Shown one piece after another: positions 17,201 to 53,992 of a stretch of DNA of 64,000 nt. Made by a program: the position numbers and the translations under genes. Origin of the DNA: a virus (taxonomy: Duplodnaviria > Caudoviricetes); IMG/VR virus record IMGVR_UViG_3300034061_005646, positions 1,155-65,154 of that record; one strand, written 5' to 3'. The first letter of the stretch is position 1. Each line of letters starts with the position of its first letter. Under the pieces are notes generated by a model that saw nothing but the letters and a program-made list of their open reading frames with translations, was not told the origin of the DNA and ran no database searches.

Positions 17201-20200
17201 TTCCTCATTATACACAGATTCCGCTATTTGAAGCTCAGATAGCGAATTTTCAGAAGGAATTGGATTTGGTTCTGGTTCTGGTTCTTCCTCAAATACATCA
17301 TCTTCAACTGCTATGGCTCTTGGTTGAGCAGTTGGTTGCTTTCCGGCATTTCTTTCGTATTCTCTTAACACCTTTTGAGTGACAGCATTGATTTCTCGTA
17401 CTGTCATGTCAGTATTTTTAGATTCACTTAAAAGATAGCTTGCGATATCAGCTTTTGTAGGGTTTGTATTTCCCTGGGCATCAAAATATTCTTTTGTTTT
17501 CTTTTTTATTTCACTGTCGTTTGGACGTGGTTTTTTACTTGTCTTAGCAACCTTTTCTTTTGACTTAGGAAAAGCTGGGCGCTTGTCTGTATCTTTTACA
17601 TCGGCAACTGTTTTTGGTTGCGCTTTGCCTTGCTTAATAACTTTAGTGTCATTCTTGGCAATACCATTAGTGGCTGATTTAAGGAATTCTTTTACAACCT
17701 TTCTTTCAGAGCTTGTAACATCAAACACACCTTCAGACTCCATTCGGTCCATAATCTCCAAATCGGTTAATCCTTCAGCTTTGTATGACTGAGCAAGTTT
17801 AGCAACATCATCATTTGCCTTAATATTCTCAACACCTTTAATTGGTGCACCTGAATTTTGGGATTTAAGCCTTTTCATTACTTTTTGTGCAGGCTCAATT
17901 TCAACTTCTTCGTTAGCTGCTATTTCTGTATCAGCATCAATTCTTCTTGCAGGTGCTGAAGCATTAGCATTTGTTGTTTTTGAAGTAGTGCTTTTTCCTT
18001 CAGACGGTTTTGCTGTAGCCTGTTCTGCCGCTTTAGCTTTTTGATCTTGTTGATACTTTAGCTCATTTAAACCTATAAGTTGATTATTTACAGTTTGAAG
18101 CTGTTGGTTAGTATATAGCTTTTCATTTTTAAGAACCTGAAGTTCAGACTTTTTTTGTTCTTCAGTTAAAGATGTATCTGCTGATACCGTAGCTATTTGA
18201 GCGTCAAGCTGTGCAGATTTTTCAGACAAGGCTGTTTTTTCAGCATTTACTCTAGTTATAGTTGATGGTATAAGACCATCTTTAACCGATTCCTCTGTTG
18301 GAGTGTTTGCAGTTACTTCAAGCTCTTGTAAAGCAGAAGCGACCTCTTGTGTGAGGCCAATTTTTTTTTGCTCTTTTTGTATTGTCTGAAGCTCTGATAC
18401 CTGTCTTTTAGCAGCATTTTGAACAACCTTATTTTTCTGTTCTTCTTGAGCATTTGTAAATTGAGTATTTACAGATTCTTTTACTGCTGCTTGTGCTATG
18501 TCTGCTTTTTGTTTTTCAAGGGCTGATATTTGATTTTGTACAGCACCAATAATAACCGGGTTGTTTTCTGCTTTTGCTTGTTCTAAAAGAACTTGTTGGT
18601 TTTTAATTTGATCTTGCACTTGAGCATATTGCATAATCTGCTCTTTACTTGCATTAAGCCCAGATGTTTTTAACATTCTGTTTAATTCGTTATATTGATA
18701 AAGCTTATCAATATATGGCTTAACCTGTTCTTCTGTTTTTATTCCGCTTTGCACAAGCTGTCTAAATCCTGCTTCTGCTGAATTTAAATCGCTTGCAAGA
18801 TCATACATATAAGAATCTACTGCTTGCCCTCTTGAACCCAAAGACATTGCAGTAGTTGATAATAATGTAGAAGCCAACATTACACCAAGGTCTCTAATTG
18901 TTGGCAAAACATCTTTGTAAACTTCTTGTCCGGCTGCAAGGTTTGTCATGTATTTGTTGGCTGTTTCTCCAATCATTGCTCCCGTTTCTTCAATTGCTTC
19001 GGCACCAAAACTTGACATTAATATTTTACCGCTTTCGGTAAGCTGTCTCATTTTTCCACCTTTAAGAGCATCAAACCATTTTTTGCCATTAGCTGTATAT
19101 ATCCAACCTTCGTCAAAAATACCTTCACTCATTACGTTAACAAATGCGTCTGCTGTTGCTTTTTTACCTGCAATAGATACAGCTTCTTCAACATTAATTC
19201 CTTTTGTCGTTAAGTTATCTAATTCATCTTCAAATGCTGATTGATATGTAGATGCATAGGTTAAATATGTTGATGGAGACATTACAGTGTTTACCAAATA
19301 GTTTAATGCAAAATTTCCAATTTTTGCTGCTCTTGTACCTGATTGCAAGCCTGAGTATAGTCTTGCTATATCTGCTACTGCTTTAACCCTTGAACCCGCT
19401 CCAATCGTTCCACCTAGCATAATTGGTGCAGACTGTACTGTAGTGCTCCAAACATCTAAGATAAAGTTTTCTGTTGGAGAGTATTTTTCTTGTCTTGCTT
19501 CGGTCCTTCTTTCAATGTTTGTTTTTTCTTCGCCAAGGTATTTATTTAACGGTGGCGCAATAAAAGTGGCCAAGTCTAATCCAAAACTCGTTAAAGCATC
19601 TTCTGCTTCTGTTTTAAAAACTCCACCCGTTGCATCTCTTAATGCTCTGTTTTGCGTTTGAATTTCTTTTTTAAGCCTTTCTTCAGCAACGCGAGGATCG
19701 TTGTTAATTGCTTCATAAATTTTATTGAATTCATTATGAGCAATTGATGCTTGTTCAAGCTTTTTTATTTCTTCAAGTTCTTTACCATAAGGCAAAAGCT
19801 TTTCATTTATTTGCTTTTCAAGCAACGGAAGCTGTTCATTATAATATTTTTCATAAACAGCTTTTTGTTCTGGGCTAATAGGCCCATTGATTAAAGATTC
19901 ATATCGCGCTTTTTCTTTTTCAAGTTCCTGTTTTTGGGTATATAAACTTAAAACTTCACCAAATTTCTTTTCTCCAATTTTGGCAACTGATTGCTGAAAT
20001 ACTTGTTTTTGATATTCAAGTTCTTTTATTCCAATTTCAGTGGCAAGTGCTTGAAACTCTAATCCGGTTTGCCCTGGTCTTCTTTCAAGCTGCTTTTTTC
20101 TTTGATCAATGACATTAAGTTTTTTTTGGTATTCTTCTCCTTCTGTACTTAAATTAACTCCATCATCAAGCGCATTCATTGGCTTTTTAACCATGTTTTT

Positions 20201-20656
20201 GCTTTGAGTGGTAGTTCTATATTCTTCAGCTTCTTGTTCAAGATCTGTAAGATTTTTATAGTTGAGGATTCTATTAGACAATTCCGGATATCTTGCTGCT
20301 CTTTTAGCCAAGGCATAGATTTGCTCACCAGACATAGCTTTTGTATCCCATGACCAAGCAAGTTTATGAATAAGCTCTTTTATTTTTTTTTCTTCTTCCT
20401 CTTGACTTGATGGATCTACAGGCTCAGGTATGCGAGAATTTTTGTTATTAATCAATGCTCCTTGTGGTGTTTGACCAACAGGATTACCCCATTTGCTATT
20501 TACAAGCTCAGGGAAAGAAGATGGCTGATTTAAAGCAGGCTTTTTCTGATTTGGATCACCACTTGATTCAACCGTTTCTAATGCATTTTGAAGAGCACTA
20601 GACTCTTCTTTTGTCTCATTTATAATACCGCCAATAGTTTTTTTTTCGTTTTCCAT
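5249..20656 (-). CDS. Giant virion RNA polymerase polyprotein (crAss-like two-barrel RNAP plus zincin domain)
   Basis: 5135 aa. Beta-like barrel motifs GDG...YK...HK...M...D...S.EKIG (about 14190-14445), beta-prime-like KVP and DNDGD (13343-13357), HEAVH zincin motif (9185-9199) with downstream DEMIAY. Follows the muzzle and ejection genes as in crAss-like phages. Confidence 0.85.
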   Translation of the reverse strand: MENEKKTIGGIINETKEESSALQNALETVESSGDPNQKKPALNQPSSFPELVNSKWGNPVGQTPQGALINNKNSRIPEPVDPSSQEEEEKKIKELIHKLAWSWDTKAMSGEQIYALAKRAARYPELSNRILNYKNLTDLEQEAEEYRTTTQSKNMVKKPMNALDDGVNLSTEGEEYQKKLNVIDQRKKQLERRPGQTGLEFQALATEIGIKELEYQKQVFQQSVAKIGEKKFGEVLSLYTQKQELEKEKARYESLINGPISPEQKAVYEKYYNEQLPLLEKQINEKLLPYGKELEEIKKLEQASIAHNEFNKIYEAINNDPRVAEERLKKEIQTQNRALRDATGGVFKTEAEDALTSFGLDLATFIAPPLNKYLGEEKTNIERRTEARQEKYSPTENFILDVWSTTVQSAPIMLGGTIGAGSRVKAVADIARLYSGLQSGTRAAKIGNFALNYLVNTVMSPSTYLTYASTYQSAFEDELDNLTTKGINVEEAVSIAGKKATADAFVNVMSEGIFDEGWIYTANGKKWFDALKGGKMRQLTESGKILMSSFGAEAIEETGAMIGETANKYMTNLAAGQEVYKDVLPTIRDLGVMLASTLLSTTAMSLGSRGQAVDSYMYDLASDLNSAEAGFRQLVQSGIKTEEQVKPYIDKLYQYNELNRMLKTSGLNASKEQIMQYAQVQDQIKNQQVLLEQAKAENNPVIIGAVQNQISALEKQKADIAQAAVKESVNTQFTNAQEEQKNKVVQNAAKRQVSELQTIQKEQKKIGLTQEVASALQELEVTANTPTEESVKDGLIPSTITRVNAEKTALSEKSAQLDAQIATVSADTSLTEEQKKSELQVLKNEKLYTNQQLQTVNNQLIGLNELKYQQDQKAKAAEQATAKPSEGKSTTSKTTNANASAPARRIDADTEIAANEEVEIEPAQKVMKRLKSQNSGAPIKGVENIKANDDVAKLAQSYKAEGLTDLEIMDRMESEGVFDVTSSERKVVKEFLKSATNGIAKNDTKVIKQGKAQPKTVADVKDTDKRPAFPKSKEKVAKTSKKPRPNDSEIKKKTKEYFDAQGNTNPTKADIASYLLSESKNTDMTVREINAVTQKVLREYERNAGKQPTAQPRAIAVEDDVFEEEPEPEPNPIPSENSLSELQIAESVYNEEEGNEAPIFDEEFDPQVEGGLGIVTTEEMIEFNAINAIQGAYNEYAKMYKEMYDKNGGNLTDKDVQKLHRMLAEKAIEKINSLYGKQISLERRRNGEFPTEGQGEMEPFYKALNNILSFIELGASSTEGSYGLFQTSQQIARDHAINGKSFASTVKTAIEEVGKSYGIENYSAIEAIQDIDEAITDAAEIISDGDQILSDLINKGGPDLNTRAAEAVGKLAHYVYLQKMKKAGLSQTPNVTYIFSGIASLFSTKINGQPRNVLEVVNYINARLSNKTNPITDSNTRMLLESIGEVLYKLSNKINESSVVNGVVNPFLAANTMRSLSTTMAQNVVQKRAVAFDKSGKVSVYVANRSKIETDVKNDVKRQVNEMIKKGLYGLNFMFQDARTALKAGRKSGDKKEIIAGLQSLRFIVAGSGILEQSIDDAIKVVEQYNSPNIKPLKQIATRYYNLTENKSDASMDPIYSFFAAEHISKNKKIFGVISESRYWSSRLGKNLTAIEKPNRNLNIVRVAEKAAQRVNQDKFLSALSQENNVVLNNQDVRHFGGKTSNGRPTARMKRLANNPLVAIASIAKKYSISAISEFNIKKGKNYAVESDKLTSEMVILTLMGDYLNSVNYGTNAFNFIEQINDSPRVYTVSGARLYAVMGKSGIEYQFSNDVAFAGMDIMTGKPSAHNALDLFKAEVQTAVDNATDRNGNPLSVAQMTKHIPSMFSIKTDATGKRTVVFDQNRLNQEAQKMYEQYLNAQLSRFYNPANAQNPIEADLAKNMVMAAYMNYYKTGDSQSFGNDVKAIADLPGVTKGLLDFINENTIGTLLDIDRYKKNANTPSQALATNHSIPTLMQEFVVNSEFNRYYHMQYLRGDQEHFMAMDEENSFVRTKMFNAPGTQVAADAPFNYVIMDKNMFGGKESISTPFGEVKVGDGVMFLSELANEVIPTSVGGQMGFEGQYKYAMSTVNANGIPTAHKGMQIVLTKELAASNPILQKMYDFMQANKLDALLDDSTEKIGAEKRTAIEWDSNADLPTEVNVHTANYGDIYIQLPTNESQSNRFSSDPDQKNKQSPLYVDSSNPKSVAALKKLQNAVSNKINASVANATLESKNFTEMVNEYRKIASPLAKKLQADKIIDFLRKQSKNESEAVRSMYENIIQKIKSGYNFEYDEGLLYQIQAAKFKQAMKSKMKSMYMAVTSPLLTIDGQTNNTPKYRIDPNNTENGISEMVVPERFKDVFAEFADENGDIYVTGIKVPYNNAATQIRAKLVFSEALNGNGSMVIPPLEFYSLSNSDNDGDRIFIYPIHKEPKKLLRYLTDRGFSIDENTTTDQLINMVNDYNDTRGKNKEIKLSTALAVFKTYQDAVENEANMELFEGKFGNEMQEQVNDVNDFLRVIEREGYTGKAKTTMSNSGMIQRNAEIQNSKNGIGKAAASIRVINLAVSMASKARVQFRPKGATQVNFSINNINFDMATFEGIPFVTNEMKQQFGLKSNAVNIEEMNQIAEERARQILNDKYQNDKKKQDDQFPYEYKKQQDLIAETFISAMYKENQKRLQNSTSQVLQIFVDAVKKGYLNKPGVNDMNMSAFILLGTRIGMMKGLTNNSIETGMSVAVNFINQPIIKKYYEMAERNSLIADEYEQQSYQLFDNIKADLRSRIAGTPYEEMLDNNTVNLSAIDSEYGLKHVQDIDYTSDLGMVGANNDYTIAQIEAVKTLGVLLDMQKAIDPLSLNTKKFDDIPVSIEESRTFISEMEKIGVLATDDEVDNVLHGIQKGKSAEEIATENTRGWLRTPMSFGTRFLGSSLTGQDQIKFDTNHNEAIAKLNEINQALSTKKGPLMESLLNKGLNYDGATAYLKYIAKVYANEVISGNRHILEDPIMFAKAEGFFTAMSVIGSSITAHSPKINRMIHKFVSNIIKSTSGQVFQKAVSRFQDAFSRVAMGEEIKKKIDNILKPEEKQNFSYAMNKVLTALYDNRSAIASNGFIKFLESREYQSVYQEPIRNENGLPVYDEKLYKQDSGIFKEVDGQKIELPENATFADFEIALRNNPIEAAKIMMAIVISQNEYQFDVYADPSSGTLFNSVTGQEYIIQDEAIVENQANDLDVLSNTQPNNFIDQAIKTFAETALATNEPFGEATAEQWFVAMSSYLSTFNPNKPSPRHQKPTNQSILLSQGGMTDFTSDQLAEIAEGINNLFAALGNPILDSDGNEVGTVMDKVITALENEALPTSFADERIISDPYMWIQYFNEQMSYKQSRNLLGIIRQDAGIYQVDVVKDLNKAWNNSHEDNFFEYANDALLKEPTMAYQITGSQITNMETGNAKDIKWASAHEYVHHRNENNGEITLYKRIQSGYINTNGKKGTAKSPNYLFVPIATYSENGDVTVLKGNNDMPLSSFQDIVSIPANSQFDNMSVADFKRAVFESIHAITGNSLETMNLLSDVLKNIEIKGVKSINNKDFITLAIKELQKASIGSPSVQTKTGNTITARNVNKLIEALKTIQEISAMNQPGQQMFVDTNKYSQITSKPSQQEKTKERARRFTMRNVAGTNQNNRTSWSETKLSALDIVNNISKYVTGSSISLRGKSINENLKSRGIEANTLSQVIKAYQEQLNANPFVADIAKKFTDVIGEVKTNVLTQKEFEDAEANAFGTQNPNPNTKAFFYNGEIYINGDSKSLDAPMVVIHEAVHAWITDAIYEAEQAQPGDAYYDLKETVLDLANVLGKVVSALPANASGVQAKVKNIWEDPQLAGNNFARVDEMIAYMMSDTTGEMQEYFARINPDLTGTQLQNYVGSDKSLFGRIRNFIFKVFKMRSAATTAQPIQDANLYEIITNILSYNEDLFTVESLIPPTLQSGKYTTVGQYTFDNANAIIDNMEADGMNAETYENAANRIPGQTRKDIQDFVKGIIPEANKLLNRGIKEMLSGNSVTNLSNILASYTAGHGSISNHAADALDRGGFAKQVTDYLRIKNEQYDAYLSNRPTYSIGLELAVDGNIVSVGPNGELNINTASFNIGENESGAALPAFDSLSFNERKQLYAAGIQAVLLEQQGEKIGTVRLFQNDLAISGSMSTKEYSMETLRPMIKEMIVQNHIENGFSKAVFSRVQEEFAISGEGVYSSFFLKKLGKNLPDLTEQDRQQLRDDLLDKDLQNDALEATVTGYINAYNNIRNFVQSGKIMDLTKADTVELLGHVQRLRMLPNDAQNGFTNNMRVVAEALTEAITLQTEQNTIRNQIVNAKQGKINSIISSITTSLNQISPDYKIDFIQDEIMNTMEQNDREMLKWKLKYSKLVDQVAKEKFGRAYRGRKIIGRFPLFNSFSNSLLNNLLEPGSGSVLVQKLKSLDAGISELQNGTMTQAEFDVLQHMNEFYAKYGRYIYNNTGIFHGGGMGEGSQLLGEPDGQASYYIPYYPSGVLNRYKTGKGTLNKFMTWWYEAYHNTNIQDDRKIESYTLPSGRVLKNVTAREIMREAAADEKIGESPLSEKNISDIYTMTHKIGGEFWTRRKGESTRAGTESLALPGMIRTSQDLREPDLFKTFMNYADEVKKAKTFTESRGLYYAGEMLLLNEKNPGLAKFLINDMKTRILNKKFEQSNETLLTKAIDFSVTAARLSMLGFSWIGGAVDLTATTITSMSAYNGMGKESNKPWVKLLGTYAGPVNMVPALLKSVYYFQELRDVALAFGMFNHRDLSTGDISIVGTTKAAMMMPYWISGNMPRLMMLADQLSIGDLEQIRQYKKDNVYTGGVKGMLEILSGDKTPTDILGMPEGEVLKVKRAIDYVEHNLGKFRNSTERMYLSNSYLNAAMQFKSWAPDYFWSRFGAEYNMNGVTLGGKYRMVAKHLAGVKTINPEQKHQAISNATWGGIITGLAMWAMIDIGDDDEKDFWSKQFKGVKIGNKSGKELFKSTMQQVMVLAEDNLVYNLSKTLPALSWMASLVELASNSISYTLQSFGTDGWKRSKKSKYGPKKSSKIPENALRALPASRMTLQYLEKNKPKSSSGVYGGY

Positions 20657-23534: not shown

Positions 23535-26500
23535 TTATGATGATTTTCTATAAATATGCTTAACGCTGTGTACAGCAAATTTCTTAAAATAATTGGTGAA
23601 TTTATACTTTACAATAATAAATACTCCCCTTACCCTTTCTTTGCCGCGTGAAGATTGAAAATATGGCACAGCAAACCTATACTCATTTAACCTTTTCTTT
23701 ACAAGCTCTTGAGTTACAATGGTATCTTCGTTTTGCTGTGCACCCATTACATTAACTGTTAAATCAGGTTCTACAGTATCGGCAGCAATTACACCATTAT
23801 CATATACAAATTGGTCAGAGTTTACGTTTACTACACCTGATTCTAATGCTCCTTTAGTTGAATTTAAAACCACATGAAGCTCACATTGTGGTTCACATAT
23901 AGCAGACATTTCTTTTATGTTTAATACAATTGCTGTAAAACCTGAGCCAGATCCAACCTTTTGATATAAACACAGTGGACTTTCAAAGTTTTCTAAAGCT
24001 TCAAATTCAAAGGTTATTTCTTTTAAACCGCTTGCTACATCATAATTTTCTTCAGAAATAACAGTCATGTATGGTTCAAATATCTTATGAGGCTGTAAAG
24101 CTATCTCTCCTGATGCTGAACTGCTAATAGTTAAGTCTGCTACAATTTTGTATTTATAGTACTTTTTAAATAAAAAGTCTTTTTTGGTTACCATTATTAG
24201 AAAGCCGTTTGGTACTGAGCTTGCTATTCCAGATACATTAGCTTTGGTTATTGGACCATCAGATAATGTAAATGATATTGGATTAAAAGTAGCTATTGCA
24301 ACAGCTCCAGAAGTAGAAAATATAAAAGCTTGATATGGATCTGAGTAACCAAACGAAGGCAAAGGTTCTGTATTTTTGTATAATGTAGTTTCTTCGCTTG
24401 TTTCATACACAATTTCTGCTTTGTTATGAAGCGGAACATGAGCTTGGTTTTCTTGTAAAAATTGACTCCCTATTGAAGCCTTATCGCTAACATTTTCAAA
24501 AAGCTTAAGCGTTTCATCATAATGAAATGTTAATATATCAAAAGTTGCTTTTGATATAATGCACGGAGCAAATGAAATAATTGAACTTCCAAAAATAAAA
24601 CTTGCTCTAAATGTTATAGGATCTGTTTCAATTTTATAACATAGAAAGCCAGAAACGGTTCCTAATTCTTTTATTGTTCCAATAAGTTTAAATCCGCTAC
24701 CATTAACAATTACAACATCTCCAATAATAAGGTTTTTATTTAATGCCTTTACCCAAAAAAAACCACCACTAAGTATTACTTCAGATTCGTCTTCTGTTTT
24801 GTTTGAAACAGTAATATAAACCTCGTTATTTTGGTTATTGTAGTTCATCCAATAACCAATGTGCTTATTTTTATTAACTTCATTTGAAATGCCAATAGAA
24901 AATATTGTTTTGAACGAAGCCATTAAGCTTAAATCTATTGGCGGCTTTTGTCCATCTGTAATACAAAAGCTATCTGTATATGGATCTATAAAATAAACGC
25001 CATAATCAGTTCTAAGCACCCTGTCAGTTGTTCCTTTTGTTTCTGATGTACTTTCTTCTCTTGAAGTAAGATATGATCCATCACCAACTGCTACTTTAGT
25101 TCCTGCTGTCGTTTGTAGCAACTCTTTATCATTTGGAAACAAAACCATAACACCCCGTTCAAAAAACACGTATAACAAACCAAAAGTATCTTCTACGGCT
25201 GTTATTGCTCCAAGATTGCCTTGCATGTCAACAATATTGTTGGATAGCAATTTACCAAATGGATTAAACTTTGAGTTGATTTCTTTTGGTAAGGTGTAAA
25301 TAAGCGTATTATTAAATACAGTTGTAAGCTTTAAAAAGTTGTCTTTAATCAAAACAAATTTAAGCCAGCTATTTGAAATGGAATAGTCGCGGTTAATTGT
25401 AAGCTTGTTATAGTCTGGATCAAACTCTCCGTTAGTTATAAACCAACCTTCGTTACCCATAGCATAATTCATACGGCTTAATACCGGCATTTGCCAAAAC
25501 CAAACGCTTGCATCTGTTGCTGATGTGTTTTGGTCATATGTTATTGGATAAGCAATTGGCTTCATTACAGTACCTGCATAACAATCGCCTCCAAAAAACC
25601 CTTGATATTTGCTATCGTATTTGTAAGTCAAATCTATTTCATGTCCTGTGTCTTCATAGTTTATAAGTCCTATTTCGGTTGATGGCTGCTCTTTTTTTAT
25701 AATCTGAGCCATATATGTTCTTGAAAATAAAGATAAATCTTCTTTTGTTTTAAAAAAAATAATTGTTCTTTCAGCGCCATTTACATCTTTTGTATATAGA
25801 GAAGCAATTTCTTCAGTAGAAGCATCAAACCAGACTATTTTAGGAGTAATGTCTTCCGCTTCCATTGCATATGGTGTTCTTACTAACGCATATTTTGCTC
25901 CATTGTAATCAATATATCGAAGCATGTCTCTTTGTGAACTATAAGATACATAATAGTTAATTCTGTCGCCATTTGCGGGATAATCTTTTTTAAACGAATT
26001 AAAGCCTAACATGTCAGGCGCAAAAACAAGTTTTCTTTCTGATTCGCTTGCAAGTGTATCTATAAGGCACCAATATCTTTCATCTCTTAAATTGCTTTTT
26101 TGTTTTCTTACAAGCTTTGCTTTTTTAGCCCAAGAAGGAAAACTTCCACTCATTCTTACAGCAGATCCAAACATCCAAAAAGCAAAAGCTGATTGATCTT
26201 GTCTAATGTTAGGTGTTTGTCCTGTTGTGTAATGATCATGGTCGTTACCTATTTGCGATATAAAGTCAAACCAATTTTGACTATCTGAATTTTGTTTAAA
26301 TTCATGATTAGTAAAAAAAGCAGGTAATGGATCAGAATAATTTCCATATTCATCAATGAATACCCATGCGTATTCATAACTTTCTCCTATTTGTTGAGAC
26401 TTATACCATTGTTGGTTAAACCAACTTTTGTGTCCTTTAGGTATAGTTCCTGTAGTTCCTATTTGGTCAGATCCAATAAACTGAGCAGCTTTTACATTAA

Positions 26501-28568
26501 CTATATTTCCACCAATTACGTTTAGTTTTTCGGTATCTGACAAAACCGGATATTGTTCTTCATATCCTGCAATAACAAGTCTATTACTGTTAAAGCAAAA
26601 AGATTTAATATTTATTGGAACAATAAAAGGTTTTGTAATTTCGGATATATTAAGACCTCCTCTAACAACATCTATAACTCCTGTATATGTTTTAATAAAC
26701 TCGTAGTAGTCTTTGTTTTTAAGCTCTCCTTCATGAATTACGTTTACTACCGCGCTTCCGTATTGGCCGCTACCAGAAATTGCTTCAATTGAGTAAATTC
26801 TTACAAAATTATACCTTCTATCAATATCAGTTATTTTAACTTCAATGCTTTGCGTTGTTTTTGTACCTGCAGGAAAACCTTTATATCCGCGATTTTTTTC
26901 ACTAACCGGTGTTGGATAAGTAGTTGTTTCGCTTTCTTCATTAATAGTTTCTATGTTTTCTCTTGCAGATCCAATGTGTATAGCATTTGTATGAGTACTT
27001 GTTTTTGACCAATTAACTCCGTCAATAGATAATTCATAAGCAAATTGATAAGCGCCAACAAGTAAAGATCCTCCGGACCTATGCACATTAGAAACAAACA
27101 CTTTTCCAAAGTTTATAGGCTTATAAACTCTTGTATTAAAGTCAATGTCTGTTGTTGGTGGCTCTGAAATATTAAAGCTTCTTAAATGACCACTTTTTGC
27201 TGACCAATAAACAAATATGTTATTGTCAGATTCATAACGAATATGAATGTTTTTAATTTGATTGTTGATTGAAAAGTCAATGTTTTCAGTTGTATGAATA
27301 AGCTTTGTAAGAACTGGATTTGCATTGTTGTTAAAATCAATTTTGTAAATTAAAACCTCTTCATCATTACCGGCAATACAAAAAGCCAAAGCAATATTAA
27401 AAGACACTTTTATAAATTCGTGTATTTCAACAGGTATTGGCTTTTTTACATAAGATGCTGAATACGTTTGAATATGTTTTGTATAAGCATATGTTTGAGG
27501 AGAGCATTCGATTAGTTCTGAATTTTCTACATACGGAGAATACGTAAAGCTTGATCCGGACGGAATAACTAAAATACTTCCTGGAGCTTTTATTCCATCA
27601 GGTGTAGAAATATTAAATTCTGCCCCATCCCATGTATTTGTTAAATAACGAGTAGATTCATCAGACTTAATGTAAGACCCAGATTTTACATAATAGTATG
27701 TATCATGCTTTAAATAAACGGCACTTCCTTGTGGTTTTGTTTCTGAATATGTTTTCCATATTTCGTCTTTACCGGGAGTATAAAACGGAGCTGATACAGG
27801 AAATTTTGATGATGAACCATGTTCGCTTCCTTGACCCCATCCATAAATGTTAATAGTGCCTTTATCTGTTGTTCCAATTGGAAAACAGTCAATGTTAAAA
27901 TTTGTATTTTCTGCAAGTTTTGCTTCAAGATACCATGTATAATCTGTAAAAGCAGGATCATTATGAAGTAATTCTGGTATAATATTAGATTGCCCTTCCA
28001 TTGTTCCATGCTTTTTAGCAGTTAAAACAATTCCTTGTTTGTCTATTGTTGACACTAATGCGTTATACCGAGCAACAACATGCTCACATATTCTTCGTTC
28101 AACGCTTAATCCACCAGCTAATGATAAAGCAAAAGAAGCACCTGTATTACTATATCCACCAAAGTTTACAAAATCAACTCTAACACGACATTGGTTAGAT
28201 GCGTCTTGTCTGCAATAAACATGTATAGTGCCAACAAGTGTGGTGTTTTTATAAAAACCAATTCCAAATCTTCTTCCGTCTGCTGAAGTAACATCAGGTC
28301 CTATTATGCTTTCTACATATCCTGTTTTAATTCCTATAATGGGGTATATATGGGCAATGTTTGGTTTTTCAGCTATTTCTTCAGCAGGTACAAATGGTAT
28401 TGTAAATACGTGCTTTGTTCCATCATCTGAAACAAACTTAAAGTTACCAGATCCATTGTTAAATATTTTACCATTTCGAATTAAACGACAATCTCCACCA
28501 AGCGATTTAATATTTGATGGGTGAGTATCCGAATCTATTTTGCTGAAAGCGTCTTGACTTTTTTGCAT
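23535..28568 (-). CDS. Tail stabilisation / muzzle protein (P22 gp10-like, crAss muzzle)
   Basis: 1677 aa, beta-rich. GSLLVGAYQFAYEL, NRLVIAG, GESYEYAWVFIDEYG.YS, FGGDCY, GVYFID and RVRG motifs; follows the tubular/ring protein gene. Confidence 0.75.
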   Translation of the reverse strand: MQKSQDAFSKIDSDTHPSNIKSLGGDCRLIRNGKIFNNGSGNFKFVSDDGTKHVFTIPFVPAEEIAEKPNIAHIYPIIGIKTGYVESIIGPDVTSADGRRFGIGFYKNTTLVGTIHVYCRQDASNQCRVRVDFVNFGGYSNTGASFALSLAGGLSVERRICEHVVARYNALVSTIDKQGIVLTAKKHGTMEGQSNIIPELLHNDPAFTDYTWYLEAKLAENTNFNIDCFPIGTTDKGTINIYGWGQGSEHGSSSKFPVSAPFYTPGKDEIWKTYSETKPQGSAVYLKHDTYYYVKSGSYIKSDESTRYLTNTWDGAEFNISTPDGIKAPGSILVIPSGSSFTYSPYVENSELIECSPQTYAYTKHIQTYSASYVKKPIPVEIHEFIKVSFNIALAFCIAGNDEEVLIYKIDFNNNANPVLTKLIHTTENIDFSINNQIKNIHIRYESDNNIFVYWSAKSGHLRSFNISEPPTTDIDFNTRVYKPINFGKVFVSNVHRSGGSLLVGAYQFAYELSIDGVNWSKTSTHTNAIHIGSARENIETINEESETTTYPTPVSEKNRGYKGFPAGTKTTQSIEVKITDIDRRYNFVRIYSIEAISGSGQYGSAVVNVIHEGELKNKDYYEFIKTYTGVIDVVRGGLNISEITKPFIVPINIKSFCFNSNRLVIAGYEEQYPVLSDTEKLNVIGGNIVNVKAAQFIGSDQIGTTGTIPKGHKSWFNQQWYKSQQIGESYEYAWVFIDEYGNYSDPLPAFFTNHEFKQNSDSQNWFDFISQIGNDHDHYTTGQTPNIRQDQSAFAFWMFGSAVRMSGSFPSWAKKAKLVRKQKSNLRDERYWCLIDTLASESERKLVFAPDMLGFNSFKKDYPANGDRINYYVSYSSQRDMLRYIDYNGAKYALVRTPYAMEAEDITPKIVWFDASTEEIASLYTKDVNGAERTIIFFKTKEDLSLFSRTYMAQIIKKEQPSTEIGLINYEDTGHEIDLTYKYDSKYQGFFGGDCYAGTVMKPIAYPITYDQNTSATDASVWFWQMPVLSRMNYAMGNEGWFITNGEFDPDYNKLTINRDYSISNSWLKFVLIKDNFLKLTTVFNNTLIYTLPKEINSKFNPFGKLLSNNIVDMQGNLGAITAVEDTFGLLYVFFERGVMVLFPNDKELLQTTAGTKVAVGDGSYLTSREESTSETKGTTDRVLRTDYGVYFIDPYTDSFCITDGQKPPIDLSLMASFKTIFSIGISNEVNKNKHIGYWMNYNNQNNEVYITVSNKTEDESEVILSGGFFWVKALNKNLIIGDVVIVNGSGFKLIGTIKELGTVSGFLCYKIETDPITFRASFIFGSSIISFAPCIISKATFDILTFHYDETLKLFENVSDKASIGSQFLQENQAHVPLHNKAEIVYETSEETTLYKNTEPLPSFGYSDPYQAFIFSTSGAVAIATFNPISFTLSDGPITKANVSGIASSVPNGFLIMVTKKDFLFKKYYKYKIVADLTISSSASGEIALQPHKIFEPYMTVISEENYDVASGLKEITFEFEALENFESPLCLYQKVGSGSGFTAIVLNIKEMSAICEPQCELHVVLNSTKGALESGVVNVNSDQFVYDNGVIAADTVEPDLTVNVMGAQQNEDTIVTQELVKKRLNEYRFAVPYFQSSRGKERVRGVFIIVKYKFTNYFKKFAVHSVKHIYRKSS

Positions 28569-46878: not shown

Positions 46879-46901
46879 TTAAAACAATTTTACGAAAAAG
46901 G

Positions 46902-46930
46902 AAAAGCCATGCGAAAGCATGGCTTTTTTT
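46902..46930 (+). terminator. Intrinsic terminator (bidirectional form)
   Basis: AAAAGCCATGC-GAAA-GCATGGCTTTTTTT. Confidence 0.85.
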
Positions 46931-46956
46931 ATTATTAAAATAGAAAAAATTATATA

Positions 46957-46964
46957 TAAATTTG
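46957..46964 (+). promoter_or_regulatory. Bacteroidota -7 promoter box
   Basis: TAAATTTG-TATC-ATG (46969), directly after a terminator. Confidence 0.6.
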
Positions 46965-46968
46965 TATC

Positions 46969-47193
46969 ATGATAACAAATATTGGCCAATTAAAAGAAAT
47001 GCTTAAAGGTATACCAGATGATACCAAGATAGCATCATTGTGTAAATCGACTGAGTACTTCCCAATTAAAGAAGTGCAATTAGTTAAAGAGCGCGGTACA
47101 GGAAAATCAATTTTGATGATTATTCCAACAAACGTATCTTTATCGGACGAATTACTATACGAACAATGCAAAGAGCTACAAACAGCCTATTAA
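46969..47193 (+). CDS. Hypothetical protein
   Basis: 74 aa; IGQLKEMLKGIPDD N-terminus common in small phage proteins. Confidence 0.65.
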   Translation: MITNIGQLKEMLKGIPDDTKIASLCKSTEYFPIKEVQLVKERGTGKSILMIIPTNVSLSDELLYEQCKELQTAY

Positions 47194-47525
47194 CGCAAAA
47201 ACCTTCGATTGCAGAGCCAAATAATTATTTTGGAATATCTGAGTCTAGGCCATGCATTTTCTGCCATAAGGAGATTTATACGCATGAATTAGAAAAGAAT
47301 AAATCTGAATACAGAATAACACAATATGGAGCATACCACACCAACTGCTTTTTATCAAGTACCGATGTTTCACGAATACATCACAGGGAAAGTTTGCCAA
47401 TACTGCGACCAGAAAACAGAATTACTGCTTTCTTCAAAAGAAATTTATATGGTAGATTATGGGCCGGTTTATATTTGTCGAAGATGCAAAGCATACGTTG
47501 GTTGTCACAAATCTGGAGAAAATAA
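47166..47525 (+). CDS. Possible zinc-binding protein (CxxC...HxxC)
   Basis: CIFC...HTNC; the C-terminal half overlaps the next gene out of frame. Confidence 0.4.
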   Translation: MQRATNSLLTQKPSIAEPNNYFGISESRPCIFCHKEIYTHELEKNKSEYRITQYGAYHTNCFLSSTDVSRIHHRESLPILRPENRITAFFKRNLYGRLWAGLYLSKMQSIRWLSQIWRK

Positions 47526-47781
47526 AGGACAAAGCCTTGGAGTTGTTGCTAACAAAGAGTTAAGACAATGGAAAATGCAAGCTCACAAATTCTTTGATGC
47601 ATTGTGGCAACATAAAATGAAATCCGGGATTAAAAAACACGAAGCCAGAAAAATGGCTTATCAATGGGTATCAGAAAAACTAGACATTCCTCCATCTTAC
47701 ACCCATATTGGAATGTTTGATATAAAAACATGCAAAGCATTGATAGCATTATGCGGACCATATTATAACAAAATTACTTGA
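47326..47781 (+). CDS. DUF3268-like zinc-finger protein
   Basis: CQYC...YICRRCKAYVGCH...LG..AN.ELR..K..AH..FD.LW...AY.W....L.I....THIGMFD...C. Start may be 47365. Confidence 0.75.
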   Translation: MEHTTPTAFYQVPMFHEYITGKVCQYCDQKTELLLSSKEIYMVDYGPVYICRRCKAYVGCHKSGENKGQSLGVVANKELRQWKMQAHKFFDALWQHKMKSGIKKHEARKMAYQWVSEKLDIPPSYTHIGMFDIKTCKALIALCGPYYNKIT

Positions 47782-47782
47782 T

Positions 47783-47983
47783 ATGAAAGTAAAAGTTGAA
47801 GTTACCGATGAAGCTGGCAATGTTCAGCAATACGATGTTAGCAGCAGTGCTTTATATGATGCACTTGCAAGGCTACTCGGATTAATTGAAGTAAGACCTA
47901 ACCAATGGGTAAATGAACACGGAGAATACTATGCGCTTACGAAATATGGATTTAAACGATATGGTGTTGGGTTGCGGTCGTAG
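47783..47983 (+). CDS. Cassette 1 hypothetical protein
   Basis: 66 aa; reads through the GTT box as YDVSSS; stop overlaps the inverse box. Confidence 0.6.
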   Translation: MKVKVEVTDEAGNVQQYDVSSSALYDALARLLGLIEVRPNQWVNEHGEYYALTKYGFKRYGVGLRS

Positions 47984-48062
47984 CATTGCTGCTAACGGTT
48001 TCGGGCTTTGTGTCCGTTGGCGACTTTAACCACAAATGTTAAATTGAAAAACAAATATTGAT

Positions 48063-48311
48063 ATGAGTACAAATGATGAATTGAAAAACGAAACCGCCAA
48101 TGGCACAAAACCCGTGTTATATGCCGTTGCGGATGTAATCGGTTTTCGTTACAAAGGTGGTAGATATGTAAAAGGTGAAATATTGAGAATAGACCCTAAA
48201 GGAATATTGATAAGGTTAAAAACCGATTACATTGGTAAAAATGAAGAATGGTATACTGGTGAAGATAAATATTTCAATAAAGCTGAAATGAAGCGTGTCA
48301 GCAAGCAATAG
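48063..48311 (+). CDS. Cassette 2 hypothetical protein (small beta-rich domain)
   Basis: 82 aa; starts inside the attC-like loop and reads through the GTT box as KPVLYAV. Confidence 0.65.
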   Translation: MSTNDELKNETANGTKPVLYAVADVIGFRYKGGRYVKGEILRIDPKGILIRLKTDYIGKNEEWYTGEDKYFNKAEMKRVSKQ

Positions 48312-48426
48312 CATATAACGCAAAGCTGGGCGAAGGCCGTAGGCTTATCGCTCAGCGACCGTTATACGAAGTTCCGTAGCCATTGCATTGGCCCAGAGCA
48401 GGAATTTCGTAATAGAAATAATAAAA

Positions 48427-48777
48427 ATGCAAATGAGTAACGAAACACAAGAGTTGAAGCTCGAATCTGAAGAAAAAAAATTTCAAGCCAAAATCTACAT
48501 TTTTAAAGGAAGAGGATTTCTATGTCCTCATTCACAACTTCAACCCGGTCAGGTAGTAATTGGAACACCCGATGGTGAGAATGTAGATCCACTGAAGAAA
48601 TATCGATTTGTTATTACCCTTGATGGTGAAACAGAGTCCGTATCAAAGTCAAGACTGCTTTTTGTAGCAAGCGTAAAGGTAAAATGGATGCGAAAACCAT
48701 TAACAACAGCTATGCAGGAAATGCAAGCTAGAATGGATGCAGCAATAGAAGAATTTAATAAATTCATCAAATCATAG
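48427..48777 (+). CDS. Hypothetical protein
   Basis: Part of ORF 48388..48777; ATG 48427 or 48433 preferred. Confidence 0.6.
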   Translation: MQMSNETQELKLESEEKKFQAKIYIFKGRGFLCPHSQLQPGQVVIGTPDGENVDPLKKYRFVITLDGETESVSKSRLLFVASVKVKWMRKPLTTAMQEMQARMDAAIEEFNKFIKS

Positions 48778-49053
48778 ATGAAACAACTAAGGCTTGACAT
48801 ATTTCCAAAACCACAAACACAAAAACAAATTCATTACTCTGAATTACCAATTGATCAAAAGATAAACCTTAAAGCAAATAGTGCAGGGTTTGCTTTATTA
48901 TGGATTAAATCATGCCTTTTTTGGAAAATAAAGTATGAAGGTTTTATTTATCGTGGAGACAAACATGATCATCTTTCTGAAAAATGGTTTTGGCACCACA
49001 AAGTCAATAACAAGCACAGAATAATAAATAAAGGAAGAATAGACTTAATATAG
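48778..49053 (+). CDS. Hypothetical protein
   Basis: 91-aa ORF adjacent to the upstream stop. Confidence 0.55.
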   Translation: MKQLRLDIFPKPQTQKQIHYSELPIDQKINLKANSAGFALLWIKSCLFWKIKYEGFIYRGDKHDHLSEKWFWHHKVNNKHRIINKGRIDLI

Positions 49054-49060
49054 TAAATCA

Positions 49061-49771
49061 ATGAAATACATTCATAAAAAAACCAAAGCGATTGCATATC
49101 AATCTGACCTAAATCCAGATACCTATGTCTTTATTATGCCGGATAAAAACATGTACGCTATACCAAGAGAAATAATAGAAATATCAAACGATTGGGAAGA
49201 ATATAACCATACACCAGAAAACATAAAACAGCTTATGGACGTCCCTTGCTTATCAATTAATGAAATAGCAATGGTTTATAAAACTGCCAATAGAGAACAT
49301 CACAAATCAGAATGGGGGTTGGATGATAATGCTAGAAAGCTTGTAAAAATGGTTCTAGAAAAGGTAATGGGAGAAAATATTGAAATAGGACTTGCTGAAG
49401 GAAAAATAACAACAGAGTCTTCAAAAACCGAATTGCCTTTATATCCAAAAATTATAACATTAAGGGAAAGACAAGACCACAGCTTTAAATATAGAGTACA
49501 AACTTTTGTAAAGCCTGATAGCGCACCAGAGGGAGTTTATTTATTGGTTGAAAGAATCACTATTCATAAACCAGCAGTAACAGCTTTGTTTTCAGAGGTG
49601 GTAGAAAAAGATAAAACGTCTTTTATATCAGAAGGTTGTCAAATCATTAATACAATATATGATGAACGAAAACCCGGCCCTTGGCTTTGTACAGAAACAT
49701 ACATAAAGCAACATGTCCAAAGACTAATCAACTTATCACAAAATAATAACTTTCAATTTCAAATTATATGA
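49061..49771 (+). CDS. Hypothetical protein
   Basis: 236-aa ORF in operon. Confidence 0.7.
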   Translation: MKYIHKKTKAIAYQSDLNPDTYVFIMPDKNMYAIPREIIEISNDWEEYNHTPENIKQLMDVPCLSINEIAMVYKTANREHHKSEWGLDDNARKLVKMVLEKVMGENIEIGLAEGKITTESSKTELPLYPKIITLRERQDHSFKYRVQTFVKPDSAPEGVYLLVERITIHKPAVTALFSEVVEKDKTSFISEGCQIINTIYDERKPGPWLCTETYIKQHVQRLINLSQNNNFQFQII

Positions 49772-51563: not shown

Positions 51564-52047
51564 AGATTTTTATAAAGCAAATCGTTTTGCTGAAGTATTT
51601 TTGGTTTATAGACACAGATATGATAAAGCAGAACCTCCTTTACGTTTTAAAGATTTAGTGACTGAACATGCATTAGCAATTGAAAGAAACTACAATATAG
51701 CCCAAGAAATTCAGCAAAAAATCTTTGAAAGAGAAACCATACAAGAAGGAGATGCCATAACAATAAATGGAGTTATAAGAGGATTTGTTACAAATAATTT
51801 GTATCAAAACGAAACAGAAAATGCATTACAAGCATTTGGAGGTGTTCTTTCTATGAACCACCACAGAAACCCTTACGGTCAAGGATCTTATTCTGGTTTG
51901 TGTGGAGATCTATATAAATACAGAAAAGCAATAGATACAGAAATGCATATCAGAAGTACTGGGTGGTTTTGGGCTGATAATTCATCAGGAGGTGCAAGAG
52001 GGCTTGATTATGCATTTCAAGTTAAAATTTGGAAACTATATGTTTAA
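51553..52047 (+). CDS. Hypothetical protein (possibly DUF4121-like)
   Basis: C-terminal GWFW...GGARG..Y.F.V.IW pattern; family call is tentative. Confidence 0.45.
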   Translation: MTIEDFYKANRFAEVFLVYRHRYDKAEPPLRFKDLVTEHALAIERNYNIAQEIQQKIFERETIQEGDAITINGVIRGFVTNNLYQNETENALQAFGGVLSMNHHRNPYGQGSYSGLCGDLYKYRKAIDTEMHIRSTGWFWADNSSGGARGLDYAFQVKIWKLYV

Positions 52048-53992
52048 CGAAGAATTTTACCCAACCCCGCCCGAAATAGCCAAACGGATGTGGCAAAAAG
52101 CAAACTGTCACGGAAAAAACGTACTAGATCCATCATGCGGAAAAGGAGACCTTTTAGCTGACCTTAATGGCAATTATTGGTATACTTGGAGAGATGATGA
52201 TAATGATGAAAGAGGATTTTGGACAAGGGCTGAAAACAGATTTGGTATTGAAATAGAACCAGAGCTTCAGGCTATTGCAAAAGATAAAGGAGTCTCAATC
52301 ATAGGAAACGACTTTCTTACCACAGATATTGAAGTCAAAATAGATGTTATCTACATGAACCCTCCATTTAGTAATGGTGATGAACACTTGCTTCGTGCAT
52401 GGGATGTAATCGCTCCTGGAGGTGTTGTTGTTTGCTTATTGAACGAAGAAACAATAAATAACCCATATACTAAGCGTAGGGAACTCCTTAAATCCATTAT
52501 TGAAAAAAATGGTGAAGTAGAAAGATGGGGGGCCTGTTTTGCTGAATCTGAAAGACCAACCAACGTAAACGTTGCTTGCGTTAAGCTTGTAAAACCAGAT
52601 GATGAAAGACGGTTTGAATACAAAGCAGACGGGTTTCAAACAGAACAAAGAGCAAAGTTTCAGTCTGAAGAACTTGTTGAAACTGGAGGACTTGTAAAAT
52701 CAGATATGCTACTTGCACTAGAAAGGGCATATCATGAAGCAAAAACAGCATTTGGTGAATTACTTATAGCATTAAGCAAGGCTGAGTCGATTTCAAGAAA
52801 CTTCAAAGAAGATAATACTTACTCTTTGTTGAATGTAATAGACATCATAAAAGAAGCTAATACAAACGAACATCGCTATGAGATATTTACCAATAGATTA
52901 CGAGCACAGGCATGGAAATTTATCATTGACAAAACCAACCTTCGGAACATTGCTACATCACGACTTCGGAACGACCTTGATTCTTTCTTAAAAGAGCAAT
53001 CAAACATTGCTTTTACAAAAGAAAATATCATTGCTGTCATCGAAATGTTATACTTTAACCAAGGAGCATATATCCAAAAAGCCGTTTCTGATGTATTTGA
53101 CCAGCTTGTTTCCTATGATAAAGAGAATAAGGTACATTGGGAAGGTTGGAAGACAAATGATGCTTATAAAGTAAATTATAAGGTTATTATGCCTTATATC
53201 GTTGAATACGAAAAAGTTTACACTCACAGACCTTGGAGTTTTGCTTATCATGGTGGTGGTCGTAATTTCTTAAATGACATTGACATTGCTCTTTGTTTTG
53301 TGTCAGGAAGAAAACTAGAAGAGGTAAATACCCTTGAAGCTTCTATCAATAGACAGTTTGATGTAGCAAACCGACATAAAGATTTGGAAAGCACAAAAGG
53401 ATCTTCAACATTCTTTGAATTCCAATTCTATAAAAAGGGTACACTACACCTTTGGTTTAGGGATGAAGAAACATGGATGCGATTTAACTTAATGGCTGCT
53501 GCCGGTAAAGCATGGCTTCCACCAAATGACATCAAAGCGCAAGAGGCTGAAGAAAAACTGAGAATGAAAAAACAAAAGTTTTCTGATGCTGCATGGGTAA
53601 GAGTAGAAAAAGAAAAAGCAAAACGCGAAAAATGGCTTCGTTCTGTTGAAATAAACTTTTTTCCGGGTAATGAACGAGGCAATGAGCTTTGCAAAATACT
53701 GTCGACTGCGGGATTTATCAATGAAGTAGATAAAGAAGCAGCAAATTGGCTTACAACAAGAAGAAAAGCACTGTATCGAATCATGGACAATGTAGGCGAT
53801 ATTAGAATCTACAACAATGAAGATGATTGTATTGGTCGTGTATCGCTAACAACACCAGAAGGAAAAATAAAACCTATCAAAGAGGTTGCTCAAGATGTTA
53901 TTGACAACATCCTTGATGAAGAGCCTGAAGAAATCATTCAGCAAACAATAGAATTTTTAGACTCAAGTAAACAACAAACAACCCTATTTTAA
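52040..53992 (+). CDS. Amino (N6-adenine type) DNA methyltransferase with DUF4942-like domain
   Basis: FYPTP, motif I VLDPSCGKG, GIEIE, motif IV MNPPF, then EGWKTN.AYKVN.K.I and FYKKGTLH. Start MFNEEF at 52040. Confidence 0.85.
   Translation: MFNEEFYPTPPEIAKRMWQKANCHGKNVLDPSCGKGDLLADLNGNYWYTWRDDDNDERGFWTRAENRFGIEIEPELQAIAKDKGVSIIGNDFLTTDIEVKIDVIYMNPPFSNGDEHLLRAWDVIAPGGVVVCLLNEETINNPYTKRRELLKSIIEKNGEVERWGACFAESERPTNVNVACVKLVKPDDERRFEYKADGFQTEQRAKFQSEELVETGGLVKSDMLLALERAYHEAKTAFGELLIALSKAESISRNFKEDNTYSLLNVIDIIKEANTNEHRYEIFTNRLRAQAWKFIIDKTNLRNIATSRLRNDLDSFLKEQSNIAFTKENIIAVIEMLYFNQGAYIQKAVSDVFDQLVSYDKENKVHWEGWKTNDAYKVNYKVIMPYIVEYEKVYTHRPWSFAYHGGGRNFLNDIDIALCFVSGRKLEEVNTLEASINRQFDVANRHKDLESTKGSSTFFEFQFYKKGTLHLWFRDEETWMRFNLMAAAGKAWLPPNDIKAQEAEEKLRMKKQKFSDAAWVRVEKEKAKREKWLRSVEINFFPGNERGNELCKILSTAGFINEVDKEAANWLTTRRKALYRIMDNVGDIRIYNNEDDCIGRVSLTTPEGKIKPIKEVAQDVIDNILDEEPEEIIQQTIEFLDSSKQQTTLF

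Follow-up and report, generated by a model that had tools for sequence, protein, structure and literature searches.

A probable integron-like array in a virus genome, with hairpin sites that may lend start codons and leaders to cassette genes

Integron cassettes are seen as promoterless and dependent on their position for transcription, with translation signals that are their own or borrowed from attI. The DNA described here raises the question whether a recombination site within an array might also provide the start codon and the first residues of the protein encoded behind it. It is a stretch of 64,000 nucleotides (nt), called the window below, that makes up most of the 65-kb viral record IMGVR_UViG_3300034061_005646 (57% complete), and at 47778-48363 it holds two small open reading frames (ORFs), ORF1 and ORF2, which begin in a site remnant and in a hairpin site respectively. 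An earlier note on this DNA had proposed that cassette genes take their start and N-terminus from the preceding recombination site, and that reordering could exchange N-termini or turn genes on and off; its observations were confirmed and its interpretation is partly supported. With fair confidence, and as one joint explanation, we read 47778-48363 as a two-cassette remnant of an integron-like array in a distant crAss-like phage, belonging to a kind of array in phages whose hairpin sites supply a start codon and a leader.

Hairpin sites and cassette boundaries

Site A, located between the two genes, has ATG 48063 in its loop (48022-48095, 74 nt), and the sequence and the ORF list confirmed that ORF2 runs from there through the right arm and the GTT box, as ...AAA CCC GTG TTA TAT..., with the G of GTT as codon base 3. 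The frame of ORF1 crosses its box as GAT-GTT-AGC at 47834-47842 with the G as codon base 1, and the statement that the two crossovers are in different phases (GAT-GTT-AGC and GTG-TTA-TAT) is correct. ATG 47783 was said to be placed in the same manner before GTT 47837; it does lie 54 nt upstream, but the hairpin there is incomplete and lacks its left arm. The estimate by hand that the 48063 leader joined to the first unit would stop after about 15 codons was reproduced by computation, which gave 15 codons for cassette 1 in the phase of site A and 15 also for cassette 2 in the other phase.

Searches with the ORF1 and ORF2 proteins in viral contigs gave loci that have only parts of the region in common with the window. 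Four of them (L003-L006) share only 47993-48120/9, at 92-96% identity, and have unrelated sequence on both flanks, the divergence starting right after ...AAC to the left and after GTTA to the right. Two loci (L001, L002) share only the body of ORF2, which there has its own short N-terminus and no hairpin, and one (L010) shares only 47778-47842. The leader of site A precedes five unrelated bodies and is in frame with all five. The ORF2 cassette is also found in the metagenome contig L041, with 73% amino acid (aa) identity and identical first and last bases but with different hairpins on both sides; a loop ATG is likewise present in its upstream hairpin, and the phase is that of site A and ORF2. 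When contigs from public sequencing runs were compared against 46900-49100 of the window, one contig of run X3 followed the backbone over 46900-47787 with 12 differences and then diverged, and another matched the backbone from 48316 onward with 34 differences. Both flanks are thus matched in X3, and a related phage therefore differs over exactly the cassette region, 47788-48315. In four runs several contigs match site A alone, with unlike sequence after 48119-48127, and one X3 contig appears to join 47842 to 48058, one side of the junction being just 22 nt.

Hairpins of this type form a family. When hairpins anchored on AAC and GTT were scored, site A reached 26.5, and the best scores in three block-shuffled versions of the window were 19.5, 19.0 and 21.5. 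The anchored scorer found at least 10 hairpins in 10 kb of L005, where successive cassettes open with GTT plus a 6-base stretch and close with AAC, preceded by the reverse complement of that stretch. A search with a two-arm pattern added 29 viral contigs and 18 bacterial ones, the latter labelled as Bacteroidota in 15 cases (including Pedobacter, Pelobium, Hufsiella, Wandonia and Crocinitomicaceae), as Ignavibacteria or Kapaibacterium in two and as "uncultured bacterium" in one. The first 44 loci, 353 kb in all, contain 154 hairpins scoring at least 20, in arrays of up to 12, compared with 0-2 per 64 kb in shuffled sequence. The sites are 47-137 nt long with clusters at 123-126 and 85-89 nt, begin with AACG and end with TGTT; in the aligned long sites AAC is present in 68/68 and GTT in 67-68/68. 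An ungapped palindrome scan misses both hairpin sites of the window because of bulges.

Covariation was relied on for the structure because folding of single sequences with ViennaRNA gave unimpressive z-scores, -1.2 to -2.0 overall and -1.4 to -1.7 for site A. RNAalifold found 16 stem pairs in 68 long sites, every one of them with compensatory double changes, in 2-30 sequences per pair and in 15-30 for 14 of the 16. With a 21-pair structure 92.7% of the cells pair (a figure that is partly built in, see below), while shuffles give 65.9% and slid partners 38-44%; the covariation score is 0.561 for the sites and 0.138 for shuffles. None of 500 shuffles came up to the pairing or to the covariation of the real sites. 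Two G.T pairs are nearly invariant, being present in 66 and 61 of the 68 long sites. The cassettes have inverted ends: 67 of 98 intervals between sites show 7-8 complementary bases out of 9 when the bases after GTT are compared with those before the next AAC, a degree of complementarity seen in 6 of 146 pairs of flanks of the same site and in about 5% of random pairs (the count excludes L008 and L009, which are copies of L007).

The core consensus of attC sites is GTTRRRY / RYYYAAC. The boxes in the window are GTTAGCA and GTTATAT and those of related sites GTTATCG, GTTAGTG and GTTATGT, so that only GTT[A/G] is conserved and the attC consensus is not followed.

Positions 47778-47842, at site C, are 92% identical to 4996-5060 of L010, where the counterpart is the right half of an intact hairpin of 125 nt (4933-5057), behind which comes an unrelated body. 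The left arm of site C is gone in the window and degenerate in L007; 5' of ATG 47783 no complete palindrome was found, nor any fold at 47780-47860. Site B, with a hairpin score at background level, is credited solely from its context. Downstream of it no cassette end complementary to its GTT box was found, and therefore nothing after 48363 is taken as a cassette.

Some further features of the sites were observed. The loop of site A contains a 24-nt motif duplicated at 48032-48055 and 48069-48092. Loops of long sites contain the motif AC[ATC]AA[AT]N[CT]T 0.86 times per loop compared with 0.06 in shuffles, and 15 of 80 loops have at least two copies, spaced by 18-19 or 37-38 nt; it could be a protein-binding repeat or part of the start context. 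Short sites of about 87 nt, for example L057:2909-3035, are followed by a conserved extension of about 55 nt. Together with a counterpart at the other end of the cassette it forms inverted ends of about 30 nt, far longer than those of classical cassettes. Cassettes behind this extension have a start of their own, 15-18 codons after GTT.

Features of the cassette region and the genes beside it (positions in the window)
Feature	Position	Strand	Remarks
Backbone gene before the array	47326..47781	+	DUF3268 zinc-finger protein, 151 aa; Pfam PF11672, E=2.4e-30
Site C	47778..47839	+	Remnant of a hairpin site with loop end, ATG 47783, right arm and GTT 47837-47839; left arm missing
ORF1	47783..47983	+	66 aa; residues 1-18/19 from the site remnant, remainder from cassette 1
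Cassette 1	47837..47996		Terminal inverted repeats, 47837-47851 and 47982-47996, 14/15 complementary
Site A	47994..48118	+	Hairpin core, 125 nt, AAC 47994 to GTT 48116-48118; arms ~47994-48021 and 48096-48118
Leader of ORF2, coded by the site	48063..48116	+	ATG and 17 codons; ends with GTG, which shares its final G with the GTT box
ORF2	48063..48311	+	82 aa (MSTNDELKNETANGTKPVLYAV...); leader and small beta-barrel body
Cassette 2	48116..48319		Terminal inverted repeats, 48116-48130 and 48305-48319, 13/15 complementary
Site B	48317..48363	+	Mini-hairpin of 47 nt closing the array, part of the backbone; score 16, background level
First backbone ORF after the array	48427..48777	+	116 aa from ATG 48427; covered by X3 and X4 backbone contigs

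Start codons, leaders and reading phase

The sites were oriented by their asymmetry, starting with AACG and not ending with CGTT, which gave 161 oriented and 21 ambiguous sites. In the 81 long sites, frames with an ATG inside the site and open up to GTT remain open for at least 40 codons past GTT in 36 of 80 cases, compared with 17 of 163 for frames that lack one (odds ratio 7.0, p=3.7e-9); in short sites the effect is absent (3/29 and 9/139). Expressed per site, 36 of the 81 have an ATG and a leader fused to the following ORF, the leaders being mostly 14-23 codons long with a mode of 18, and in 18 of them the G of GTT falls on codon base 1, in 14 on base 3 and in four on base 2. Clusters of sites with the same core are consistently fused in frame, namely site A in 5/5, the leader of methyltransferase cassettes in 3/3 and site C in 2/2, whereas a bacterial core cluster with an incidental ATG gave 0/4 in-frame fusions. 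There are also two viral core clusters that each combine one copy having a long fusion with one having a 7-9-codon stub.

DNA methyltransferase bodies follow at least six different leaders. Several methyltransferase cassettes (in L005:6364-7270, L005:8902-end and L011:283-1150) have a common leader borne by the site, M[LI]DRITEQPFCQTRV, and diverge after the GTT box. Some cassettes have an ATG straight after GTT and could thus be translated either with the leader or without it. The motif TAnnTTTG is a promoter motif of the Bacteroidetes type. Promoters of this kind in the loops or cassette heads were considered and rejected: the motif was found before 6 of 93 cassettes with their own start, against a background of 4%, and before one of 46 leader starts.

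For ORF2 the modular reading of leader and body is well supported. The earlier note had suggested collecting homologues to see whether similarity starts only after the crossover residues and whether leaders are interchangeable, and for ORF2 the outcome agrees with that prediction, with similarity in 27 homologues beginning only at V18/L19. About 20 of them have leaders of 10-40 residues that are unrelated or loosely related to each other, and seven have short N-termini, with 2-10 residues before the conserved block. In five loci (L001, L002, L042-44) the homologues are ordinary genes outside any hairpin. The first in-frame ATG in the ORF2 body is M76. AlphaFold2 predicts a disordered leader, the predicted local distance difference test (pLDDT) score being 43 over residues 1-10, 64 over residues 11-20 and 86-96 in the following beta-barrel. 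The conserved body comprises 64 residues and is predicted to be a small five-stranded beta-barrel; its structural matches are weak and are to Sm/Hfq/SH3-like barrels, with E about 0.01 and a template modelling (TM) score of about 0.5. The body as an ordinary gene adjoins tRNA-like sequences in the phage contigs L001, L002 and L043. Searches of Pfam and PHROGs gave nothing for either ORF1 or ORF2.

ORF1 behaves differently, and the modular reading is true of it historically. The entire unit is present in L007-9 at 95% identity, and the leader is kept together with the body, with conservative substitutions, in eight of nine homologues, the ninth having a different N-terminus. The idea that its N-terminus is an exchangeable part is thereby contradicted in part, but the same leader is found on intact hairpins before unrelated bodies in L010, L019 and an X3 contig of high depth. 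AlphaFold2 gives residues 1-20 a pLDDT of 87-91 with a confident beta-hairpin formed by residues 2-8 and 14-20. ORF1 is read as an older fusion in which the site has decayed and the leader is now a fixed, structured part of the protein.

The polarity of the genes relative to the sites differs between phages and bacteria. In viral and metagenome intervals the longer ORF is on the AACG..TGTT strand in 62/62 clear cases, and in bacterial intervals it is on the other strand in 11/11; a further 41 intervals, unclear or mixed, were left out. Of the long sites, 36 of 66 in viral loci and none of 15 in bacterial loci are of the leader type. The hairpin core is the 5' neighbour of the gene in phages and its 3' neighbour in bacteria, as in classical integrons.

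The linkage of cores to genes was followed in 96 pairs of sites with the same core. The ORFs differ on both sides in 88 pairs and three pairs are duplicate contigs; in phage arrays five keep only the downstream ORF and none keeps only the upstream one. Comparison of the sequences thus indicates, weakly, that cores travel with the sequence after GTT, if they travel with anything, and the leader-bearing hairpin in phages may be the gene's own. In that case reordering may routinely move leader and gene together, and the idea that the leader is borrowed from the cassette in front loses weight. Exchange at the GTT edge also occurs, since many same-core pairs differ on both sides. The proposal that the N-terminus comes from the preceding site can accordingly be kept in so far as the leaders are coded by the sites, with the change that the leader may often belong to the gene. 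As to reordering, the site A leader on five unrelated bodies agrees with an exchange of N-termini, and the sole direct hints of switching are the two core families with 7-9-codon stubs. We infer translation from the loop ATG, and any regulatory effect, including on/off switching.

A hairpin core and the 83-aa cassette downstream of it are common to an array in a Pelobium metagenome-assembled genome (L057:2909-3310) and to the viral locus L029 (site 2237-2322), with 100% identity over 86 translated codons. The L057 copy adjoins the recombinase gene and has the gene orientation of the phage type. This suggests that phage and host arrays exchange cassettes.

Recombinase, mechanism and other explanations

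The large viral record L011 encodes a Xer-like recombinase of 298 aa, its gene coming immediately behind the end of a cassette, and homologues with 38-45% identity are located beside sites in one more viral contig and in four bacterial contexts, which gives six loci with a recombinase next to sites (L011, L016, L057, L064, L065 and L068). The 348-aa recombinase of L057 (Pelobium) has a score of 228.9 to NF040815, the XerA-type model of NCBIfam with a cut-off of 220, and the one of phage L011 is just below it with 206. Against the IntI model TIGR02249 the adjacent recombinases reach 155-206 bits, the match being in two pieces and leaving out profile positions about 180-237, and canonical IntI (above 265 bits) was found in none of five site-bearing genomes. 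The enzyme is likely to be a XerA-like tyrosine recombinase without the IntI-specific insertion, from some of the phages and from hosts of the Bacteroidota group. In classical attC arrays the genes are on the strand opposite to the one that is recombined. In phage attC sites, as reported in PMC9892861, the other strand is recombined too, at lower frequency.

In an integron-like array with sites that supply starts, the inverted ends of the intervals outside GTT/AAC would be the trace of a single-strand, site-specific exchange in the folded hairpin, like that of attC. Cargo in the bacterial arrays is antisense to the AACG..TGTT strand and followed by the site, as in classical integrons; in the phage arrays the genes are on that strand, each preceded by a hairpin. 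About half of the long phage sites have a loop ATG and 14-23 codons that cross the right arm and the GTT box and enter the cassette. ORF2 would receive residues 1-17 from site A, its cassette starting at the TTA of the GTT box with no start of its own, and because of the phase classes, with the G of GTT as codon base 1 or 3, a body should work only behind a site of its own phase. The hairpin would then provide both a start codon and, in defined phases, a peptide for the N-terminus, so that recombination could alter both the reading and the N-terminus of the cargo.

Several observations weigh against this explanation. Tyrosine recombinase (PF00589) was found neither in the 65-kb record of the window, which is 57% complete, nor in two small, 100%-complete viral records carrying site A. 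The leader of ORF1 is conserved with its body in 8/9 homologues and predicted to be structured, and a swappable tag is not its present state. The 88 of 96 same-core pairs that differ on both sides cannot be explained by a single fixed crossover point alone. Frames and pairs were counted in phylogenetically non-independent sequences. The finder requires a stem and AAC/GTT anchors and orients by the AACG rule, and for this reason the pairing percentage and the G.T pair at columns 4-156 are partly a matter of construction. Finally, an NTG overlapping each GTT box, GTG 48114 in the case of site A, could start the phase-2 cassettes in place of the loop ATG.

The last point leads to the likeliest alternative, although we consider it improbable: the hairpins are real recombination sites, but translation starts at the NTG over the GTT box or by re-initiation, and the leader acts in the manner of ORF-11, as a short upstream ORF opening the hairpin. 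The sites do end in NTG|TT, with T in 66/68 and G in 67/68, the leaderless ORF2 homologues begin three residues before the VLY motif, and the 7-9-codon stub in one of two copies of the two core families would be such an upstream ORF; coupling of ORF-11 and ORF-18 is documented for attI1 (PMC8876359). Start codons at the box do not account for the 45% of leader frames that continue into the cassette, compared with 10% of other frames, nor for the five bodies behind site A, which are all in the frame of the leader. The roughly 20 ORF2 homologues with extensions of at least 10 residues all have open leader frames, with many different leaders, and GTG 48114 is located in a G+C-rich arm whereas ATG 48063 is in an A-rich loop.

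Less probable is that the hairpins are regulatory RNA or DNA elements, for processing or as a terminator-plus-start, similar to the promoter early stem-loops (PeSL) of T4-type phages (PMC2839356, PMC4122927), and that the genes are shuffled by homologous recombination without a dedicated recombinase. This would fit the nearly invariant G.T pairs, which are G.U on the sense strand of the phages (66/68 and 61/68), the repeated loop motif (0.86 per loop against 0.06), and most of the site-bearing phage records, which are without a recombinase. PeSL are reported to be conserved short stem-loops that flank small variable genes and mark the borders of swapped modules, as the sites do here, and their shuffling is ascribed to homologous recombination between motifs. 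The borders observed here are fixed at AAC and GTT rather than scattered through a conserved core, the cassettes have inverted ends of their own abutting GTT/AAC in 67 of 98 intervals, which homologous exchange would not make, and genes for tyrosine recombinases abut arrays in six contexts. The bacterial sites are moreover antisense to the genes (11/11), so that a hairpin stabilised by wobble pairs would not be present in the mRNA there.

The least probable alternative, by a narrow step further down, is an ordinary host-derived fragment of an integron, a cluster of attC sites lacking integron-integrases (CALIN), served by canonical IntI and with the site-starting ORFs as accidents of annotation; in virulent phages both CALINs and functional attC sites are on record, with methyltransferase cassettes among them (PMC9892861), and site size, AAC/GTT ends and complementary cassette ends agree with the logic of attC, but no IntI above the TIGR02249 cut-off is present in the five genomes, the neighbouring recombinases skip the IntI-specific region of the profile, the polarity of the phage genes is inverted in 62/62, leader frames are strongly enriched, and site A and a short-class site are unmatched in 50,697 phage records.

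Arrays of this family share with integrons and CALINs, among them those of virulent phages (Qi et al. 2023, PMC9892861), small cassettes between imperfect AAC...GTT hairpins of 47-137 nt, complementary cassette ends, methyltransferase cassettes and sometimes a recombinase of the Xer/IntI branch nearby. They differ in that the recombinases lack the IntI-specific insertion, the box after GTT is not RRRY, the complementarity continues 6-12 nt beyond GTT, the phage genes are on the other strand with the hairpin before the gene and not at its 3' end, the cores have different partners on both sides, and the long sites carry an ATG and a leader. For attI1 it is described in PMC8876359, where short ORFs within attC are also discussed, that ORF-11/ORF-18 have their start region within the recombination site and act by translational coupling. 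In both systems an initiation region contained in the site spans the crossover and serves cassettes without start signals of their own, but ORF-11, as portrayed there, is a separate peptide closed by a stop in the cassette, located in attI and acting on the first cassette only. Here the frame is fused to the cassette protein, is located in an attC-like loop and occurs throughout the array; ORF2 and 36 of 81 long sites continue for at least 40 codons rather than being closed by a stop in the cassette. The internal proteins of phage T4 have a conserved short N-terminal leader for capsid targeting on highly variable small proteins; the leaders of the ORF2 type are different, being variable, predicted to be disordered and with no sign of targeting. 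The literature search covered the top-ranked papers without their supplementary tables, and there no in-frame leaders in attC-type loops, phase classes, split in polarity between phages and bacteria, or integron sites in crAss-like phages were found.

An extension of the integron-like explanation, which we put forward tentatively and do not favour over its negation, is a mirror image of the integron, in which phages of bacteria of the Bacteroidota group use the hairpin sites of their hosts, and probably the same XerA-like recombinase, with the cargo flipped, so that the hairpin serves as a portable module of start and leader. If this were true, exchange at the GTT edge would resemble exon shuffling in viruses that infect bacteria: N-termini would be swapped, bodies out of phase would fall silent and the leader would become a short upstream ORF. 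Leaders that are conserved, like the beta-hairpin of ORF1, might then be functional tags common to unrelated small proteins. The sites would in any case belong to a large integron-like system in uncultured phages and in genomes of the Bacteroidota group without canonical IntI, with at least one cassette common to a viral contig and a bacterial array, and they could provide handles on expression deep in arrays, on the strand that is recombined and on the acquisition and exchange of small accessory genes, such as methyltransferases, by phages.

The phage and the surroundings of the array

The phage appears from its sequence to be a distant crAss-like phage of lake water, because its terminase matched only crAss-like phages among 50,697 phage records, with 22-25% identity, and the public runs containing its DNA are mainly lake-water metagenomes. 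BLAST of 46900-49100 and of one short-class site against the same records gave no match. A head and packaging block with the major head protein, the portal and the large terminase (PHROGs) is encoded on the minus strand, and the region 40.6-64 kb is filled with many small ORFs on the plus strand. An ORF of 5135 aa (5249-20656, minus strand) adjoins the structural genes and another of 1677 aa is located at 23535-28568; crAss-like phages typically encode giant proteins. No tRNAs were found in the window and it had no hits to any Rfam family, Rfam itself holding no attC model.

For the first backbone ORF after the array no family match was found in Pfam or PHROGs. A 666-aa protein encoded at 51992-53992 (plus strand) has an N-terminal region similar to DNA methyltransferases (PHROGs); it is located outside the cassette region, and the phage therefore also has a methyltransferase that is not in a cassette. 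At about 46895-46930 a G+C-rich stem is followed by a run of T and resembles a terminator, and a match to TAnnTTTG is located at 46956, just 5' of an ORF at 46969. From that ORF on, the small genes up to and including the cassettes may constitute one transcription unit.

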